Positions 3,002 to 44,204 of a stretch of 64,000 bases of DNA are shown piece by piece. Positions within the stretch are counted from its first letter, which is position 1. Every line of letters begins with the position of its first letter. Origin of the DNA: Planctomycetota bacterium (GTDB taxonomy: Bacteria; Planctomycetota; UBA8742; UBA2392); NCBI GenBank assembly GCA_020845475.1, contig JADLFN010000049.1, forward strand, positions 3,062 through 67,061, read 5' to 3'. Under the pieces are notes generated by a model. It did not search any database. It saw nothing but the letters and a program-made list of their open reading frames with translations, and was not told the origin of the DNA. Both the position numbers and the translations under genes were made by a program.

Positions 3002-3061
3002 AGGGGAATTGTCGATTGTTGATTGCCCCTTGTCGATTCGAAACAGGAGATCAATCGAAAA

Positions 3062-3775
3062 TCAAAACAGCCGCCACTTCAGCAGTTCCCAGAGCGCCCA
3101 AAAGCCGTCCATGGGACGGATCTTCTTGCCTTCCTCAATGCTGCGGGGGTGATAGCGGATCGGCACCTCAATGATGCGCTTGCCCGCGCGCAGCACCTTG
3201 GCTGTGACCTCGGGGCAGAACTCGAAGCCCGTGCAGGTGAGTGGAATCTTGCGCAGCATCGGCCCGCGGAAAAGCTTGTAGCAGGTGGGTTCGTCGCTCA
3301 GGTGTGAGCCATAAAGCAGGTTCGTGACCGCCGTGACCAGCCTTCCCCCGTAGAAGAACTTGGCCTGGCCGCGCTTGTCGGGCCCGTGGACACGCGAGCC
3401 ATACACGACATCGGCTTCACCCGCGACCATGGGCGCAAGCAGCTTGGGGTAGTCTTCCGGTTCGTACTCCAGGTCTGCGTCCTGGATAATCACGTACTCG
3501 CCTGTTGACGCGTCAATACCCGCGCGCACGGCGCTGCCCTTGCCGCCGTTTTCCTTGGTAATCACGCGCACGGTCATGCCCGCATGCGCCTTCTTGGCCC
3601 AGTCGCGCACAGCCTCCGCGGTGCCATCGCGCGAACCGTCATCGACCACAACCAGTTCAATATGAAGGCCGATGCGCAACGCCTCTATGCGGTCAAGGAT
3701 GCGCGAAATCGTGGCGGCTTCGTTGTAAGCGGGCACGACCACTGAAAGCGTCTCGCGCTTAGCGGCTTCAATCAT
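3062..3775 (-). CDS. Family 2 glycosyltransferase (polyprenol-phosphate sugar transferase-like)
   Basis: LSVVVPAYNEAATI...VVVDDGSRDGT...IQDADLEYEPEDY, classic GT2 N-terminal motifs. Confidence 0.8.
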   Translation of the reverse strand: MIEAAKRETLSVVVPAYNEAATISRILDRIEALRIGLHIELVVVDDGSRDGTAEAVRDWAKKAHAGMTVRVITKENGGKGSAVRAGIDASTGEYVIIQDADLEYEPEDYPKLLAPMVAGEADVVYGSRVHGPDKRGQAKFFYGGRLVTAVTNLLYGSHLSDEPTCYKLFRGPMLRKIPLTCTGFEFCPEVTAKVLRAGKRIIEVPIRYHPRSIEEGKKIRPMDGFWALWELLKWRLF

Positions 3776-3790
3776 GGGCGGGGATACTGC

Positions 3791-3825
3791 AATTCAAAAT
3801 ACAGAATTCAAAATTCAAAATGGTA
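3791..3825. repeat. Heptamer-periodic tandem tract (aattcaa aatacag aattcaa aattcaa aatggta)
   Basis: Read directly. The 7-nt unit repeats 5 times in the intergenic gap between two minus-strand genes, next to a terminator hairpin. Confidence 0.7.
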
Positions 3826-7806: not shown

Positions 7807-7890
7807 GATTTTGGACTTTTGATTCTGGATTTTGGATTGGAGCGCAATCGCGCCAACCCGTTTTGCAGTTCAATCGAAAATCCAAAATGA
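7807..7890. repeat. Heptamer-periodic inverted-repeat element (arms 7807..7841 and 7862..7890)
   Basis: Arm 1 is gattttg gactttt gattctg gattttg gattgga. Arm 2, cagttca atcgaaa atccaaa atgaggt, is its imperfect reverse complement, with a spacer of about 20 nt. Confidence 0.75.
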
Positions 7891-19336: not shown

Positions 19337-19472
19337 GGTGACTTGTGCCAGGTGGTTGGTGACTCGTGCTTGGTGATTGGACTGGCCACTTGTCTCGGCG
19401 CGTCCATTGATCCAAAGGTGTTTACCAGCCACCAGCCACCAGCCACCAGCCACCAGCCACTATCCACCAGTT
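19337..19472. repeat. Heptamer-periodic inverted-repeat element (arms 19337..19385 and 19424..19472)
   Basis: Arm 1 is ggtgact tgtgcca ggtggtt ggtgact cgtgctt ggtgatt ggactgg. Arm 2 is accagcc x5, actatcc, accagtt, the imperfect complement. Arm 2 abuts the ffh stop codon. Confidence 0.75.
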
Positions 19473-20946
19473 ACAAATCGACCTTGAACTTGTTGCGGAA
19501 CTCGGCAAAGTCTTCGGCCGCCGGGCGGCGCAAATTCGGCTTGGCGCGCTTTTTGGAGCCGCCCTGCATCTTGGCCTGCTCGGCGAGCATCTTCTTCTTG
19601 TCGCGGCTCATCTTCCATGCCGTGGCCTTGCCCATAAGGCCCTGGTTCTTCAAGCCCTGCACCATGGTGCGCATCTGTTCAAACGCTTTGAGCAGGCGGT
19701 TCACTTCTTCGATGGTGCGCCCACAACCGCTTGATATGCGGCGCTTGCGGCTGGGGTTGAGCTGGTCGGGCAGGCGCCGTTCCTTGGGCGTCATCGATTT
19801 GATGATCGCCTCCACATGATCGAGACCCTTTTCGTTGATCTGGTCCAGGGGCAGCTCAGCCGCGCCGGGGATCATTTTCAGCAAGTCTTTCATCGGGCCC
19901 ATCTGCTTGATGGCCTTGATCTGGCTCAGGAAGTCCTCGAGCGTGAATTCATCCTCGATCAGCTTGCGCTCCAGCTCGACGGCTTCTTCTTCCTTGATCG
20001 CGGCCTGGGCCTTTTCCACGAGCGTAACGACGTCGCCCATGCCCAGGATGCGGCCAGCCACGCGATCAGCGTGGAAGACTTCCAGGCCATCGGGCTTTTC
20101 GCTCACGCCCACAAACCGGATCGGCTTGCCGGTAATCGCGCGCACCGTCATCACTGCGCCGCCGCGCGAATCGCCATCGAGCTTGGTCAGGATTGCGCCC
20201 GTCAGCGGCAGCTTTTCGTCAAATGCTTTCGCCGATTTCACGGCGTCCTGGCCGGTCATGCCGTCGCACACGAAAAAGACTTCATCGGGCGTGCAGGTGT
20301 CCGCAATCTTCTTCACTTCATCCATCAGGTCTTCATCGACGTGCAGGCGGCCGGCGGTGTCGAGTATGACAACGTCATGCGCATTCTTTTTCGCAAAGGC
20401 CAGCGCGTCGTTGCAGACCTTGACGGGGTTGCTGGCGCGATCGGCGAACACCGGCACCTGAATGCCCTTGCCGACCACTTCGAGCTGATCGACAGCGGCC
20501 GGGCGCTGCAAGTCCGCAGCCACGAGCAGCGGGTTTTTCTTGTGGATGCGCTTGAGATAGAGCGCAAGCTTGCCGCAGGTCGTGGTTTTGCCCGAGCCCT
20601 GCAAGCCGCACATCATGATTACGGTGGCGCGATCACCCCTGAAGTTCAATCGCGCGCGGCCTTTGTCATCAACGACATCCGGCGCGGACATCATGGAGAC
20701 CAGCTCGTCATGGACCGCCTTGACGAACTGCTCGCCCGGGCGCACGCCCTTGAGCACTTCGGCGCCCAGCGCTTTCTCTTTTACGCGCTCGGTGAATTCC
20801 TTGGCGATTTTCAGGGAGACGTCGGCCTCAAGCAGGGCGGTGCGGATGGCGCGCACGGCATCCTGAATGTTGGCCTCGGTGATTTCGGCATTGCCGGAGA
20901 GCTTGCGCCAGACCTCGGTGAAGCGTTTGGAGATGTTGTCGAACAT
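19471..20946 (-). CDS. ffh: Signal recognition particle protein Ffh
   Basis: MFDNISKRFTEVWRKLSG, GLQGSGKTTTCGKLA, DTAGRL, and an M-domain with a Met-rich region. The C-terminal tail is basic. Confidence 0.92.
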   Translation of the reverse strand: MFDNISKRFTEVWRKLSGNAEITEANIQDAVRAIRTALLEADVSLKIAKEFTERVKEKALGAEVLKGVRPGEQFVKAVHDELVSMMSAPDVVDDKGRARLNFRGDRATVIMMCGLQGSGKTTTCGKLALYLKRIHKKNPLLVAADLQRPAAVDQLEVVGKGIQVPVFADRASNPVKVCNDALAFAKKNAHDVVILDTAGRLHVDEDLMDEVKKIADTCTPDEVFFVCDGMTGQDAVKSAKAFDEKLPLTGAILTKLDGDSRGGAVMTVRAITGKPIRFVGVSEKPDGLEVFHADRVAGRILGMGDVVTLVEKAQAAIKEEEAVELERKLIEDEFTLEDFLSQIKAIKQMGPMKDLLKMIPGAAELPLDQINEKGLDHVEAIIKSMTPKERRLPDQLNPSRKRRISSGCGRTIEEVNRLLKAFEQMRTMVQGLKNQGLMGKATAWKMSRDKKKMLAEQAKMQGGSKKRAKPNLRRPAAEDFAEFRNKFKVDL

Positions 20947-21039: not shown

Positions 21040-21606
21040 CTAGGTGCTGGGCTTCTGGCTCTCCACGTGCTTTTTGAGGTCGGAGAGGTAGCGCTTGATG
21101 CCGTCTTCCGGCTTCATCATGAAGCTGCCGATTGCGCGCATGAACGCATTGGGCGTCTTGCCGATTTCGGTCAGGGTCACTTTGGTGAATTTCTTGTCGC
21201 CTTTGGTGACTTCCTCAAACTTGAACGTCCACCTTCCGGTGAACATGTCCTTCGATTCGCGCACTTCGATCGTGATCGAATTCGGCTTGAAACCGTTGGT
21301 TTGCGTGGTGATCAGTTCCATGTCTCCGTCAACGACCTGTGTGTACGTGAGCTTGTCGCCGTCCTTCTTGAAGTCCTTGATCTCCTTCACCATAGAAGTC
21401 CACTTGGGTACGCCCTGGATGTCGGCGACGGCCTCGTAGCAGGCCAGCGGCCAGCGCTCCACCTCGACGCTCGTCGAGGCCATATGCTCTTCGGGAATCG
21501 AGTTGCCATAGATGAACAGGCCCGCGCCGCAGGCCGCAATCAGCAGCACGCCATAAATCAGAATCTTGCCGATGCCAATGCCGCCCTTCTTCTTGTCGTC
21601 GCCCAT
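21040..21606 (-). CDS. SRPBCC-family (polyketide cyclase/START-like) membrane-anchored protein
   Basis: Starts at MGDDKKKGGIGIGKILIYGVLLIAACGAG (AGGAG upstream of the ATG at 21606). W-containing SRPBCC-like core WTSMVKEIKDF...TGRWTFKFEE. The ORF-track N-extension to 21747 is judged spurious. Confidence 0.55.
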   Translation of the reverse strand: MGDDKKKGGIGIGKILIYGVLLIAACGAGLFIYGNSIPEEHMASTSVEVERWPLACYEAVADIQGVPKWTSMVKEIKDFKKDGDKLTYTQVVDGDMELITTQTNGFKPNSITIEVRESKDMFTGRWTFKFEEVTKGDKKFTKVTLTEIGKTPNAFMRAIGSFMMKPEDGIKRYLSDLKKHVESQKPST

Positions 21607-21710
21607 GGCTGATCTCCTTGAACTTGTGATTATCACAGGCATGGCTAAACTTGCACGTTCTAAATGGCCCGCCATAGCCCAAAGGGCGAAGGGGGGTCGG
21701 TCCAGCGGCC

Positions 21711-24347
21711 GTGGGTAATCCCGCGACGCCGCTACAGAGGGGCACAAGCCCTGAGAGTGCCATGAACAACGCCTCCGGCGCCAACGCGCCCAAGCTGCAT
21801 TCGAATTTGCAACTTCGCGCCGGTGACCACACCCCCGGCGCCTATCGTCCGTCCAAGGGCCAGCCCTTTGATCGCCTCGAGCGCGGCGGCCACGTGGACG
21901 ACGCCGAACTTCTCTCCGGAAAACTCACGCCCGATGGCCACTCGGTGCCGCATGAACGCCGCGCCGAACAAGCCGCGCTCAACGCCAAGTGGCTTGTTGA
22001 AGAACGCGAACGCCTGCGCGCGAGCAAAGGCGAGCCCGTAGCCTATGCACAAGCCAGCGCCAGCGAGCAATCGCCGGGCCTTGAATACGCCGACCTCGAA
22101 AAGTTCCTCGCCTCACGCAAGGCCCTCAACAACGCGGGCGAAAAGGATCTCGAGGCCAAAGCCGCGCGCGCGCAGGAATATGCGGCGAAACTGGCGGCGG
22201 AATATTATGCGAAGTCAGAGGTCGGAGGTCAGGGGCCTGAAGTTGAAACCAATTCAGAATTCAGAATTCAGAATTCAGAATTGCCTGCTCGCACTGCGTT
22301 CCTGCCAACTTCGCGCGCCGACATGGACGCAAAAGGTTGGGCCGCCTGCGACTTCATCCTCGTCAGCGGCGACGCTTACGTTGATCACCCCAGTTTCGCC
22401 AACGGCGTGATTTCGCGCGTGCTCGAGTGGGCCGGCTTCAAGGTGGGCATCATTGCGCAGCCCGATTGGCGCAACCTCGACGACATCAAGCGCCTGGGCG
22501 CACCCCGGCTGGGTTTTCTGGTGGGGGCGGGAAATCTCGATTCGATGCTCAACGCCTACACGGCGCACAAGCTGCCGCGCAGCGATGACCCCTATTCGCC
22601 CGGCGGCAAAGCCGACGCGCGGCCTCAGCGCGCGACGATTGTGTACTGCAACCTGATTCGCCGCGCGTTCGGCAAGGCGCCCATCATCATCGGCGGCATG
22701 GAGGCCAGCCAGCGCCGCTTTGCGCATTACGATTACTGGGACGACCGCGTGCGCCGCAGCATCTTGCTCGATAGCAACGCCGACATGCTCGTGTTCGGCA
22801 TGGGCGAAACGCAGATTGTCGAAGTCGCGCACCGCCTCAACGGCGGCGAAAAAATCCACGAGATCAACGACGTGCGCGGCACGGCCATCGTGCGCAAGGA
22901 TGTTTCGTTTCTCGACGCGCCGGGCTTCGTGGAGCGCTTCGGCAAAGCCCAGTTCACGATGGCGTACGAGACGCTGCTTCCGCCGAGGTATCAGGTATCA
23001 GGTGTCAGGGATCAGGAAAAGCCCGATACCCGAAACCCGAACCCTGATACCCAGGCCGATCGTGTTCAAGAACACCAAGACACCGGCCCGCACGCCATCC
23101 CCGCCTATCGCAAGAACTACGCGATCACCTTCAAACAGCTTTACGACGAGCAGGACCCCGTGCGCGGCCGGCCCGTGGTTCAGCCAACGGGCGCGCTGCA
23201 TGTGGTCCAGCTTCCGCCGGCGCGCTTGCAAAGCGAAGCCGAGCTCGACCGCTGGTACGACCTGCCCTACACGCGCATGCCGCACCCGGATTACGATGCC
23301 AAAGGCGGCGTGCCTGCGTGGCTGACCACGCAGCACACGATCGTGACGCACCGCGGCTGCATGGGCTCGTGCACCTTCTGCGCAATCTGGATGCACCAGG
23401 GCCGCACGATTTCGAGCAGAAGCATCGAGAGCATTGAGCGCGAGGCGCAAGCCATCACCCACATGCCCAGCTTCAAGGGCTATATCTCGGACGTGGGTGG
23501 GCCCACGGCGAACATGTATGGCAACTATTGCAGCGTTCAACAAACCCTGGGTGCGTGCAAGGAGCGTGACTGCCTGCTGCCTGATCCATGCCCCGCGCTG
23601 CGGCAACACCTCGACAAGCAAGTGGAAATGTTAAGCCGCGTGCGCGCGGTGCCCGGCGTGAAGAAAGCGTTCATCGCCAGCGGCATCCGTTACGACATGC
23701 TGATCGACGAGAAAACGACCAAGGGCTGCAGCGACCAATATATTGAGAACCTCGCGGCGCATCACACGTCAGGCCACCTGAAAGTGGCGCCCGAGCACAC
23801 CAGCGATCAGGTGCTTGCGAGAATGCGCAAGCCGAGCTTCGCCAAGTACGAGATTTTCAAGCAGCGTTTCGTGGATGCCAGCAAGCGCGTGGGCAAAGAG
23901 CAGTATCTAGTCGCCTACTTCGTGAGCAGCCACCCCGGCTGCACCATGGAAGAGCAGATCGCGCTAGCCGAGTATTTCAAGAAAAGCGGGTGGAGCCCCG
24001 AACAGGTGCAGGATTTCATTCCCACGCCCATGACGCCTGCGACGGCGATGTTCTATTCCGGCTTCGACCCCGAGACGATGCAGTACGTCTACACACCCAC
24101 GACGATGCGCGAAAAGCGCCGCCAGCGCGCGCTGATGCAATTCAAAAAGCCCGAGTTCCAGGGCCGCGTACGCAAGGCCCTGCGCGAAGCCGGCCGCAGC
24201 GAACTCATCGGCAAAGGCCCGCAAGCGCTGGTGCCGCCCGGCAACGAAGAAGACTGGGAAGACGACAACCCCCGCCGCCCCGCCGGCATCGGCAGCGGGC
24301 CGGGCACGTTCAAGCCGCGCAAAGCCTATCGTGGCAAGCGCAGATAG
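21711..24347 (+). CDS. ygiQ: YgiQ-family radical SAM protein (UPF0313) with an unusual ~190-aa N-terminal extension
   Basis: The core begins FLPTSRADMDAKGWAACDFILVSGDAYVDHPSF, matching the E. coli YgiQ N-terminus as recalled. Radical SAM motif GCMGSCTFC. The extension has a coding-like GC3 pattern, and the true start is uncertain (ATG 21762, or TTG near 22283). Confidence 0.8.
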   Translation: MGNPATPLQRGTSPESAMNNASGANAPKLHSNLQLRAGDHTPGAYRPSKGQPFDRLERGGHVDDAELLSGKLTPDGHSVPHERRAEQAALNAKWLVEERERLRASKGEPVAYAQASASEQSPGLEYADLEKFLASRKALNNAGEKDLEAKAARAQEYAAKLAAEYYAKSEVGGQGPEVETNSEFRIQNSELPARTAFLPTSRADMDAKGWAACDFILVSGDAYVDHPSFANGVISRVLEWAGFKVGIIAQPDWRNLDDIKRLGAPRLGFLVGAGNLDSMLNAYTAHKLPRSDDPYSPGGKADARPQRATIVYCNLIRRAFGKAPIIIGGMEASQRRFAHYDYWDDRVRRSILLDSNADMLVFGMGETQIVEVAHRLNGGEKIHEINDVRGTAIVRKDVSFLDAPGFVERFGKAQFTMAYETLLPPRYQVSGVRDQEKPDTRNPNPDTQADRVQEHQDTGPHAIPAYRKNYAITFKQLYDEQDPVRGRPVVQPTGALHVVQLPPARLQSEAELDRWYDLPYTRMPHPDYDAKGGVPAWLTTQHTIVTHRGCMGSCTFCAIWMHQGRTISSRSIESIEREAQAITHMPSFKGYISDVGGPTANMYGNYCSVQQTLGACKERDCLLPDPCPALRQHLDKQVEMLSRVRAVPGVKKAFIASGIRYDMLIDEKTTKGCSDQYIENLAAHHTSGHLKVAPEHTSDQVLARMRKPSFAKYEIFKQRFVDASKRVGKEQYLVAYFVSSHPGCTMEEQIALAEYFKKSGWSPEQVQDFIPTPMTPATAMFYSGFDPETMQYVYTPTTMREKRRQRALMQFKKPEFQGRVRKALREAGRSELIGKGPQALVPPGNEEDWEDDNPRRPAGIGSGPGTFKPRKAYRGKRR
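22213..22283. repeat. Heptamer-periodic tract inside the ygiQ ORF (gtcagag gtcggag gtcaggg ... attcaga x4)
   Basis: Read directly. It is translated in frame as SEVGGQGPEVETNSEFRIQNSEL, just upstream of the conserved YgiQ N-terminus. Confidence 0.7.
22987..23056. repeat. Heptamer-periodic inverted-repeat element inside the ygiQ ORF
   Basis: Arm 1 is ggtatca ggtatca ggtgtca gggatca; loop ggaaaag; arm 2 is cccgata cccgaaa cccgaac cctgata. It is translated in frame as YQVSGVRDQEKPDTRNPNPDTQ. Confidence 0.75.
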
Positions 24348-41912: not shown

Positions 41913-41948
41913 CCCGTCTCGAGATCCAAACCTTGCCAAGACCTGACC

Positions 41949-42041
41949 GATTCTCGATTCTCGATTTTCGATTTTCGATGGGCTCTGCCACGGCGTGGGT
42001 GCGCAGGTCGGCACTCGATAGTCGAAAATCCAAAATCAGCG
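41949..42041. repeat. Heptamer-periodic inverted-repeat element (arms 41949..41983 and 42014..42041)
   Basis: Arm 1 is gattctc gattctc gattttc gattttc gatgggc. Arm 2 is ctcgata gtcgaaa atccaaa atcagcg. Arm 2 shares tcgaaaatccaaaat with the element at 7862..7890. Confidence 0.75.
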
Positions 42042-44125: not shown

Positions 44126-44130
44126 CGTGA

Positions 44131-44204
44131 GTTCAGATTTCAGAAATCAGAGCTAATGCTGCGCCGGATAGAGCCTCTTCTGAATTCTGAATTCGGAGAA
44201 TCAT
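44131..44204. repeat. Heptamer-periodic inverted-repeat element (arms 44131..44153 and 44175..44204)
   Basis: Arm 1 is gttcaga tttcaga aatcaga gc. Arm 2, cttctga attctga attcgga gaatcat, is its imperfect complement, upstream of sucD. Confidence 0.7.

Follow-up and report, generated by a model that had tools for sequence, protein, structure and literature searches.

In-frame heptamer-repeat elements in the extended ygiQ gene of a planctomycete, and their possible relation to PF05635 gene cassettes

We find that the ygiQ gene in a 64,000-nucleotide (nt) stretch of a Planctomycetota genome (assembly GCA_020845475.1, contig JADLFN010000049.1, positions 3,062 to 67,061 of the forward strand; hereafter the window) contains two short elements built of tandem 7-nt units, one at the junction of a clade-specific N-terminal extension with the YgiQ core (site 1), and the other in a loop of a larger insert that is specific to Planctomycetota and belongs to the Radical_SAM_N domain (site 2). 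Both elements lie within a single open reading frame (ORF; 21711..24347, forward strand, 878 aa), and the description of their sequence and translation in an earlier, sequence-only reading of this DNA is borne out. In our view they are very probably copies of a dispersed heptamer repeat that reside in a genuine, extended ygiQ gene and are translated with it, persisting in permissive linkers where they are subject to turnover.

The heptamer arrays at both sites are not a chance occurrence: 21-mers of either unit, allowing up to three mismatches, match the window 8 and 2 times, where 100 shuffles give an expectation of 0.00. At site 1 the array of the unit AATTCAG is perfect over 4.6 copies (22251-22282; 100% matches in Tandem Repeats Finder), and the stretch is translated as KSEVGGQGPEVETNSEFRIQNSEL, seven codons before the conserved FLPTSRADM. 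Site 2 folds as a hairpin (minimum free energy -30.5 kcal/mol, z = -4.2), whereas no such fold is obtained for site 1 (z = +0.1), where the two arrays are direct and both in the 'TCAG' sense orientation. In an AlphaFold2 prediction (predicted template modelling score 0.67), residues 168-189 (site 1) and 427-456 (site 2) have a predicted local distance difference test (pLDDT) value below 50 and no secondary structure. A search of Rfam returned only a single chance match (RF02879, 21 bits against a gathering threshold of 81 bits).

To judge from their sequence, both ygiQ segments are copies of a dispersed repeat family. The genome assembly (4.27 Mb, 77% complete and roughly 85-89% coding) holds 282 arrays of period 7, compared with 113 of period 6, 40 of period 8, and 38 in a third-order Markov simulation. 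Genome-wide there are 223 elements, with a mean unit GC content of 0.45, and inverted arms are present in 53 of the 57 elements that have two or three arrays. The right module of site 1 recurs at about 25 other genomic places with 90-100% identity and identical boundaries, and another full copy of site 2 exists at C4:17137-17201 (83% identity over 65 nt, loop included). Most elements are intergenic and near start codons, their intergenic settings being divergent in 21 cases and convergent in 1, and 67 of 175 scored flanks have the element end 0-19 nt before a downstream ATG. A role as intrinsic terminators was considered and rejected, given this avoidance of convergent intergenic regions.

Only around 10% of elements are in frames flanked on either side by sequence that looks coding. 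Besides those of ygiQ, about 20 in-frame copies occur in interdomain linkers of housekeeping genes, with hosts that include IcmF-like mutase (two), PriA (two), DNA polymerase I (PolA; two), ABC-F, MetH and E1 dehydrogenase fusions. The ygiQ-type peptide TNSEFRNQNSEL is also encoded by a repeat copy in IcmF-like mutase, and the site-2 family and type of peptide are found in four other genes, a peptide of the form VSGI.SQVSG...PDT occurring in ABC-F, MetH and an oxidoreductase. In samples of 200 kb, period-7 arrays number 9 and 7 in two other genomes of the family, 1 in a genome of the same order and 0 in a genome of the same phylum.

Further elements were seen elsewhere in the window. One, (ACCAGCC)x6.7 at 19337-19470, adjoins the ffh stop codon (gene at 19471..20946, minus strand) and is paired with a GGTGATT-type array at 19351-19380. 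Intergenic heptamer-arm hairpins lie at 3008-3075, 3791-3821, 7807-7890, 41948-42041 and 44126-44204, several of them abutting start codons; a 'cat' (minus-strand start) is located 15 nt upstream of the array at 3791, and the element at 44126 starts directly after a stop codon.

Turnover and probable translation of the elements among orthologs

Orthologs were surveyed by a six-frame search of 61 related genomes, and the DNA between conserved anchors was taken from 22 orthologous loci by alignment-based extraction. Both sites form blocks of hypervariable length in the YgiQ protein alignment and, relative to distant YgiQ proteins, which lack these segments, both are lineage-specific. The proposal of the sequence-only reading that the second element occupies a linker agrees with this hypervariability, with the low pLDDT and with the position of the loop in the Planctomycetota-specific insert. 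Seven is the best autocorrelation lag at site 1 in 17 of 19 family orthologs and at site 2 in 16 of 19 inserts, and the majority of inserts form hairpins (z from -2 to -6). The units themselves vary by genome, and include GGAGGCG/CGCCTCC, GTTCCGA/CGGAACT, GGTATCA/CGATACC, GTCAGCA/TGCCGAC, GGGAATC/GATTCCC and AAAATCC.

Differences extend to sister sequences in the YgiQ tree. L087 and L095 carry different unit families at both sites, and at site 2 an 87-nt element in L090 stands against an 18-nt empty state, KGESPE, in its sister L099; the empty state is also present in L101 and the out-family L100, giving three empty orthologs in all. Within the closest clade (L081, L084 and L083) site 2 is orthologous and 75 nt long in each, and in L083 both elements have decayed at an approximately neutral rate, with the periodicity of site 2 lost. 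At site 2, the arms of four orthologs are not complementary. In L190, a strain-level relative that is 3.4% divergent, both elements have the same length as in the window and the left array of site 1 is more regular, and a check for phase variation found no repeat-number difference between these two sequences. In L082 and L191, site 2 holds not a heptamer element but an in-frame, GC-rich palindrome of ~21-26 nt, (TA)GGGGCGACCCATGGGTCGCCCC(TA), which has 29 copies in the genome studied here at up to two mismatches (e.g. C42:21960 and C26:7689).

Because equal sites carry different units, sisters differ and some sites are empty, we read both positions as hot spots of repeated replacement, conversion or re-insertion. 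The pattern reads as rapid turnover of elements at two fixed, permissive sites rather than as one ancient insertion that has drifted slowly, and no specific peptide seems to be selected for; selection on a nucleic-acid feature may operate at the sites.

A different kind of insert at site 2 is shared by L089 and L096, which belong to different clades. It is not heptameric, is read as EPRPKGRGPAEGG, and comprises two tiny GC hairpins (CCCCGGCC-GAAA-GGCCGGGG and CCCGCC-GAA-GGCGGG), for the first of which no copy was found in G000.

At each site the orthologs show 11 different insert lengths, and every one of these is a multiple of 3. In-frame stop codons are found in 0 of 20 inserts at site 1 and 0 of 19 at site 2, compared with 8 of 20 and 9 of 19, respectively, in the +2 frame. 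Substitutions within the elements are distributed evenly over codon positions (15/15/15, 8/7/8 and 5/4/5), and the encoded peptides consequently appear to be unconstrained. We infer from this evolutionary pattern that the elements are translated as part of YgiQ. The frame is open in 18 of 18 full-length family orthologs, and the inserts are lineage-specific, predicted to be disordered and copies of a dispersed repeat, all in keeping with the earlier suggestion that they are tolerated peptide insertions akin to Rickettsia palindromic elements.

As 7 and 3 have no common factor, all seven cyclic triplets of a unit come into frame once its array reaches 21 nt, and therefore only units without a stop triplet would be expected to persist in an ORF. 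This would account for the form of both ygiQ elements. The complement of AATTCAG and that of GTCAGAG each contain TGA, so that two sense arrays, and not a hairpin, would be kept at site 1; likewise, the TGA in the perfect complement TGATACC would explain why the right arm at site 2 consists mostly of CGATACC-type units. This stop-avoidance account is one that we infer from the units themselves.

The extended ygiQ gene and rival accounts of the elements

The product is recognised as YgiQ by TIGR03904 (767.3 bits, the curated cut-off being 462.35; residues 197-810 align with model positions 1-558), and Pfam matches are obtained for Radical_SAM_N, Radical_SAM and DUF3362. The CxxxCxxC radical-SAM motif is intact, with C550, C554 and C557 invariant in 26 aligned sequences. 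More than 30 planctomycete homologs (70-99% identity; the set used to compare starts was P0001-P0036) have an equal architecture, lengths of 840-877 aa, and a start equivalent to MNNASGA, that is, to ATG 21762. The only annotation question concerning the start is thus whether GTG 21711 or ATG 21762 is used, and it is trivial. Read from GTG 21711, the ORF overlaps the longest ORF of a divergent gene (21040..21747, minus strand) at 21711-21747; the starts of both are probably over-extended, and the real ones are likely to be ATG 21762 for ygiQ and ATG 21604-21606 (MGDDKKKGG) for its neighbour.

The N-terminal extension is conserved in the YgiQ protein alignment and has predicted helices at residues 81-105 and 147-170 (AlphaFold2); no Pfam family matches it. 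Compared with the congener L082, its substitutions fall 13/10/53 on codon positions 1/2/3, which supports the remark in the sequence-only reading that the segment upstream of site 1 looks coding. Extension and core are read in a single frame free of stops in each of the 18 full-length orthologs of the family (6 genera), and also in G028, from a second family of the same class, where the extension is likewise fused to YgiQ; in other families of the phylum the YgiQ match does not start until residue ~175. When the extension was searched by itself against 5.8 billion proteins, no stand-alone homolog appeared among those of 0.55-1.75 times its length. By these comparisons the extension would be translated and under purifying selection, and its fusion with YgiQ appears genuine and old; site 1 may therefore sit where an ancestral 5' region once was. 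Of the two options that had been raised for the first element, a gene fusion and a mis-called start, the former thus stands and the latter is for the most part rejected, and the idea that 21762..22212 might exist as a separate gene elsewhere found no support.

In two fragmented relatives, G007 (C48 and C66) and G009 (C325 and C52), extension and YgiQ core are on separate contigs. The contig break falls within the interval holding site 1, and would fit a repeat-induced break in the assembly.

Under a mis-called start, the upstream ~150 codons would be a separate gene or untranslated, YgiQ would begin at the in-frame TTG at 22281, and site 1 would be intergenic. Short-form YgiQ proteins of other phyla do begin 7-9 residues before FLP, which is the place of this TTG, and the usual gap between an intergenic element and the start codon after it is 0-19 nt, while the lack of a Pfam match for the extension points the same way. 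However, extension and core keep their single frame across the 18 family genomes and G028 despite 11 linker lengths, the extension evolves as coding sequence and has no stand-alone homolog in the search above, and neither the TTG nor an equivalent start codon is conserved at this position in orthologs, so that we consider a false fusion highly improbable. An origin of the arrays in situ, by replication slippage in a low-complexity linker rather than as dispersed copies, might be sought in the tolerance of the linkers for expansions and in the different units found at the same site between genomes. It is scarcely credible, given that the 34-nt module CAATTCAG...GAATTG occurs ~25 times with identical ends, that site 2 has a full-length copy including its loop, that like families occur in unrelated genes and intergenic DNA, and that period 7 specifically is enriched across the genome.

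An alternative of another kind is that the elements are selected as nucleic-acid signals, whether as hairpins in mRNA or DNA that make translation pause between domains, RNase III sites at which the mRNA is split in the manner of rRNA intervening sequences, an internal start giving a short isoform, or a 7-nt slippage switch for phase variation. Throughout the family, both sites indeed retain heptamer arrays while their peptide varies freely, site 2 has changed less relative to L084 than synonymous sites have, the perfect 4.6-copy repeat at 22251-22282 has a unit that is not a multiple of 3, and the PF05635 cassettes considered below resemble rRNA intervening sequences, which are processed by RNase III. 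Yet site 1 of the window is unfolded and four orthologs have site-2 arms that cannot pair, three orthologs (L099, L100 and L101) have an empty site 2 and two others (L082 and L191) a different small palindrome there, both elements of L083 have decayed at a near-neutral rate, and the window and L190 show no difference in length; we regard such a signal as improbable. If, as we favour, the elements are dispersed copies in permissive positions, they would persist in two disordered linkers of YgiQ, only stop-free versions would survive there, and the occupants of both sites would be repeatedly replaced, or converted from other genomic copies.

Table 1 Features of the ygiQ locus in the window, and PF05635 genes of the genome
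Feature	Position	Strand	Description
Long-form ygiQ coding sequence	21762..24347	+	861 aa from ATG 21762; longest ORF from GTG 21711
Parts of the ygiQ product		+	N-terminal extension, Radical_SAM_N, Radical_SAM, DUF3362, basic tail; Pfam/NCBIfam matches
Clade-specific N-terminal extension	21762..22211	+	~150 aa, mostly helical
Site-1 element	22213..22283	+	Left array, spacer and right module; in-frame translation SEVGGQGPEVETNSEFRIQNSEL
Site-1 left array	22214-22234	+	(GTCAGAG)x3; actual units GTCAGAG GTCGGAG GTCAGGG
Site-1 spacer	22235-22249	+	15 nt
Site-1 right module	22250-22283	+	CAATTCAG...GAATTG; C(AATTCAG)x4.6
In-frame TTG	22281..22283	+	End of site-1 element, 7 codons before FLP; candidate internal start of a short-form YgiQ
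Site-2 element	22986..23056	+	Hairpin with heptamer arms; in-frame translation YQVSGVRDQEKPDTRNPNPDTQ
Site-2 left arm	22986-23016	+	(AGGTATC)x4.4
Site-2 loop	23017-23023	+	7 nt
Site-2 right arm	23024-23052	+	CGATACC CGAAACC CGAACCC TGATACC
Peptides across the elements			EVETNSEFRIQNSELPAR and YQVSGVRDQEKPDTR; predicted from ORF translation
Nine PF05635 genes	Contigs C3, C33, C46, C48, C55, C63, C64, C72, C75		Loci L151-L159

PF05635 genes between inverted short-unit arrays

PF05635 (23S_rRNA_IVP) is a family of rRNA-intervening-sequence proteins homologous to Avd of diversity-generating retroelements (DGRs; PMC10053308). All nine PF05635 genes of the genome are flanked by inverted arrays of short units, mostly heptamers, and each locus has a unit of its own (GTCAGAG on C33, AATTCAA on C48, CCCAAGA on C75, CACGAAA on C64, GACCGAC on C46, and others). 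In 8 of the 9 loci the ATG of the next host gene lies 3-12 nt past the right arm. Most of 28 further PF05635 genes from across the phylum are likewise situated between inverted short-repeat arrays; over the 37 loci, flanks show a mean best 21-nt inverted match of 18.3, where displaced controls reach 14.3, and lag-7 scores of 15.4 on average, where the controls reach 9.5. Every one of the 23 genomes of the family has PF05635 genes, in 1-14 copies, and a comparison made by eye only revealed no clear trend linking their number to how regular the ygiQ elements are. The left unit of site 1, GTCAGAG, is the arm unit of the cassette on C33. The PF05635 proteins of C33 and C48 have the cleanest arms and are 54% identical to each other, and the units of these two loci match the most abundant families of short elements.

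A reverse-transcriptase partner for these Avd-like genes was considered and dropped, the only reverse transcriptase of the genome being retron-like and unlinked. This protein of 493 aa, encoded by L160 (G000:C15:41809-43287, minus strand), has YADD and VTGVVVN motifs; upstream of its gene there is a long inverted repeat, typical of msr/msd, and a heptamer array ~350 nt further.

Since PF05635 genes are bracketed by like arrays, the short hairpins, including the ygiQ copies, are most simply interpreted as gene-less arm pairs. The short elements would then probably stem from cassettes with a PF05635 gene between inverted heptamer arrays, either as solo arms or as versions that lack the gene, propagated and homogenised either by the PF05635 protein or by host recombination acting on hairpins. 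That the PF05635 protein itself mobilises them is a possibility we take seriously while thinking the opposite somewhat likelier. We offer as a tentative and on balance unlikely extension that heptamer hairpins are the termini of a self-propagating PF05635 cassette, with recognition of the unit specific to each lineage, MITE-like spread (MITE, miniature inverted-repeat transposable element) and periodicity maintained by conversion from active copies; gene-less arm pairs would thereby reach protein linkers and the DNA immediately upstream of start codons. If true, this would explain the fresh, genome-specific element in both ygiQ linkers of every family member, and rRNA intervening sequences, the heptamers of Xanthomonas and cyanobacteria, and stand-alone Avd-like genes would represent one kind of element.

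Several observations weigh against our interpretation of the ygiQ elements as neutral, translated, cassette-derived copies. The argument for translation through them is an evolutionary one throughout. Divergence of site 2 from L084 is 0.19 per site, compared with 0.39-0.44 at flanking third positions, which suggests nucleotide-level constraint or conversion, and the elements may therefore not be purely neutral. No target-site duplication is visible when the filled site of L090 is compared with the empty site of L099, and no transposase is associated with the elements, PF05635 genes being the only genes that are. Moreover, no PF05635 cassette whose arms are GGTATCA or AATTCAG turned up in the 77%-complete assembly, the low identity among the nine PF05635 paralogs (13-55%) marks them as old, and a PF05635 gene could merely have inserted into pre-existing hairpins or their loops.

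Repeats that appear as translated, disordered loops inside essential enzymes (YgiQ, PolA, PriA and MetH) may be selfish or structural DNA, and such translated repeats affect gene annotation, the prediction of domain boundaries and the interpretation of 'lineage-specific inserts'. Site-specific turnover across a whole family would furthermore amount to a natural experiment on the positions in a protein that tolerate arbitrary peptides. Should the link to PF05635 hold, a very widespread family of unknown role would gain a testable function, the binding or propagation of flanking heptamer arrays, and the long-noted excess of heptamers in bacteria would gain an origin.

Comparison with known repeat systems

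The closest analogy for the coding copies is provided by Rickettsia palindromic elements and intragenic MITEs, which lie in frame and are translated at positions compatible with the fold of the host protein (reviewed in PMC10969869). As in Rickettsia, a short multi-copy repeat is found in frame in unrelated housekeeping genes, and most copies are non-coding. As to palindromic structure, site 2 is a hairpin and site 1 consists of two direct arrays (z = -4.2 and 0.1, respectively). In contrast to the Rickettsia elements (~150 bp), those of the ygiQ type measure 45-80 nt, their arms consist of tandem 7-nt units that vary between families and genomes, and there is neither a conserved encoded peptide domain nor any sequence relation. 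Moreover, orthologous sites here are re-occupied or turned over across a bacterial family, and the arms are linked to PF05635 genes.

Some intervening sequences of 23S rRNA contain a PF05635 ORF and inverted repeats that can form a long stem. The cassettes described here resemble them in having a small PF05635 gene, encoding a four-helix bundle, between inverted repeats able to form such a stem, but are intergenic, located just upstream of host start codons, and have arms of tandem heptamers. Unlike PF05635-carrying intervening sequences, the ygiQ copies are without a gene, and, unlike the situation of Avd in DGRs, no reverse transcriptase adjoins the PF05635 genes. The small dispersed repeats of Nostoc (Elhai et al. 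2008), for their part, are reportedly very small hairpin repeats associated with heptamer arrays. The ~21-nt palindrome at site 2 of L082 and L191 may be likened to these, although it differs in phylum and sequence.

Heptamer repeats are also described in Xanthomonas, where 70-75 convergent pairs exist per genome, under-represented in coding DNA and located near ORF ends (Rehm et al. 2015, PMC4692102). In that work the GGGAATC repeats of Xanthomonas and the GGGGAYT repeats of Nostoc are read as formers of G-quadruplexes, with a single G-rich unit per genome (PMC4692102). Our elements share with these and with the cyanobacterial repeats of the short tandemly repeated repetitive (STRR) type a tandem arrangement, a preference for about four units, convergent pairs capable of forming stem-loops, rarity in coding DNA and a location near ORF starts or ends (PMC4692102). 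Indeed, the site-2 unit of ygiQ in L094 (G008), GGGAATC/GATTCCC, is the very heptamer reported there as highly enriched, and often in inverted pairs, in Xanthomonas (PMC4692102). The contrast lies in the dozens of unit families found here, many of them AT-rich (e.g. AATTCAG and AAAATTC), in the in-frame translated copies, which are not the subject of that work, and in the PF05635 link, which apparently is not either (PMC4692102). A G-quadruplex reading cannot apply to AATTCAG or GGTATCA, and GTCAGAG is likewise not a G-rich unit of the quadruplex-forming type. Our search of the literature on heptamer repeats in Planctomycetes returned nothing. What goes beyond published descriptions is that heptamer elements turn over at fixed sites throughout a family, and that arms of the same kind bracket PF05635 genes.

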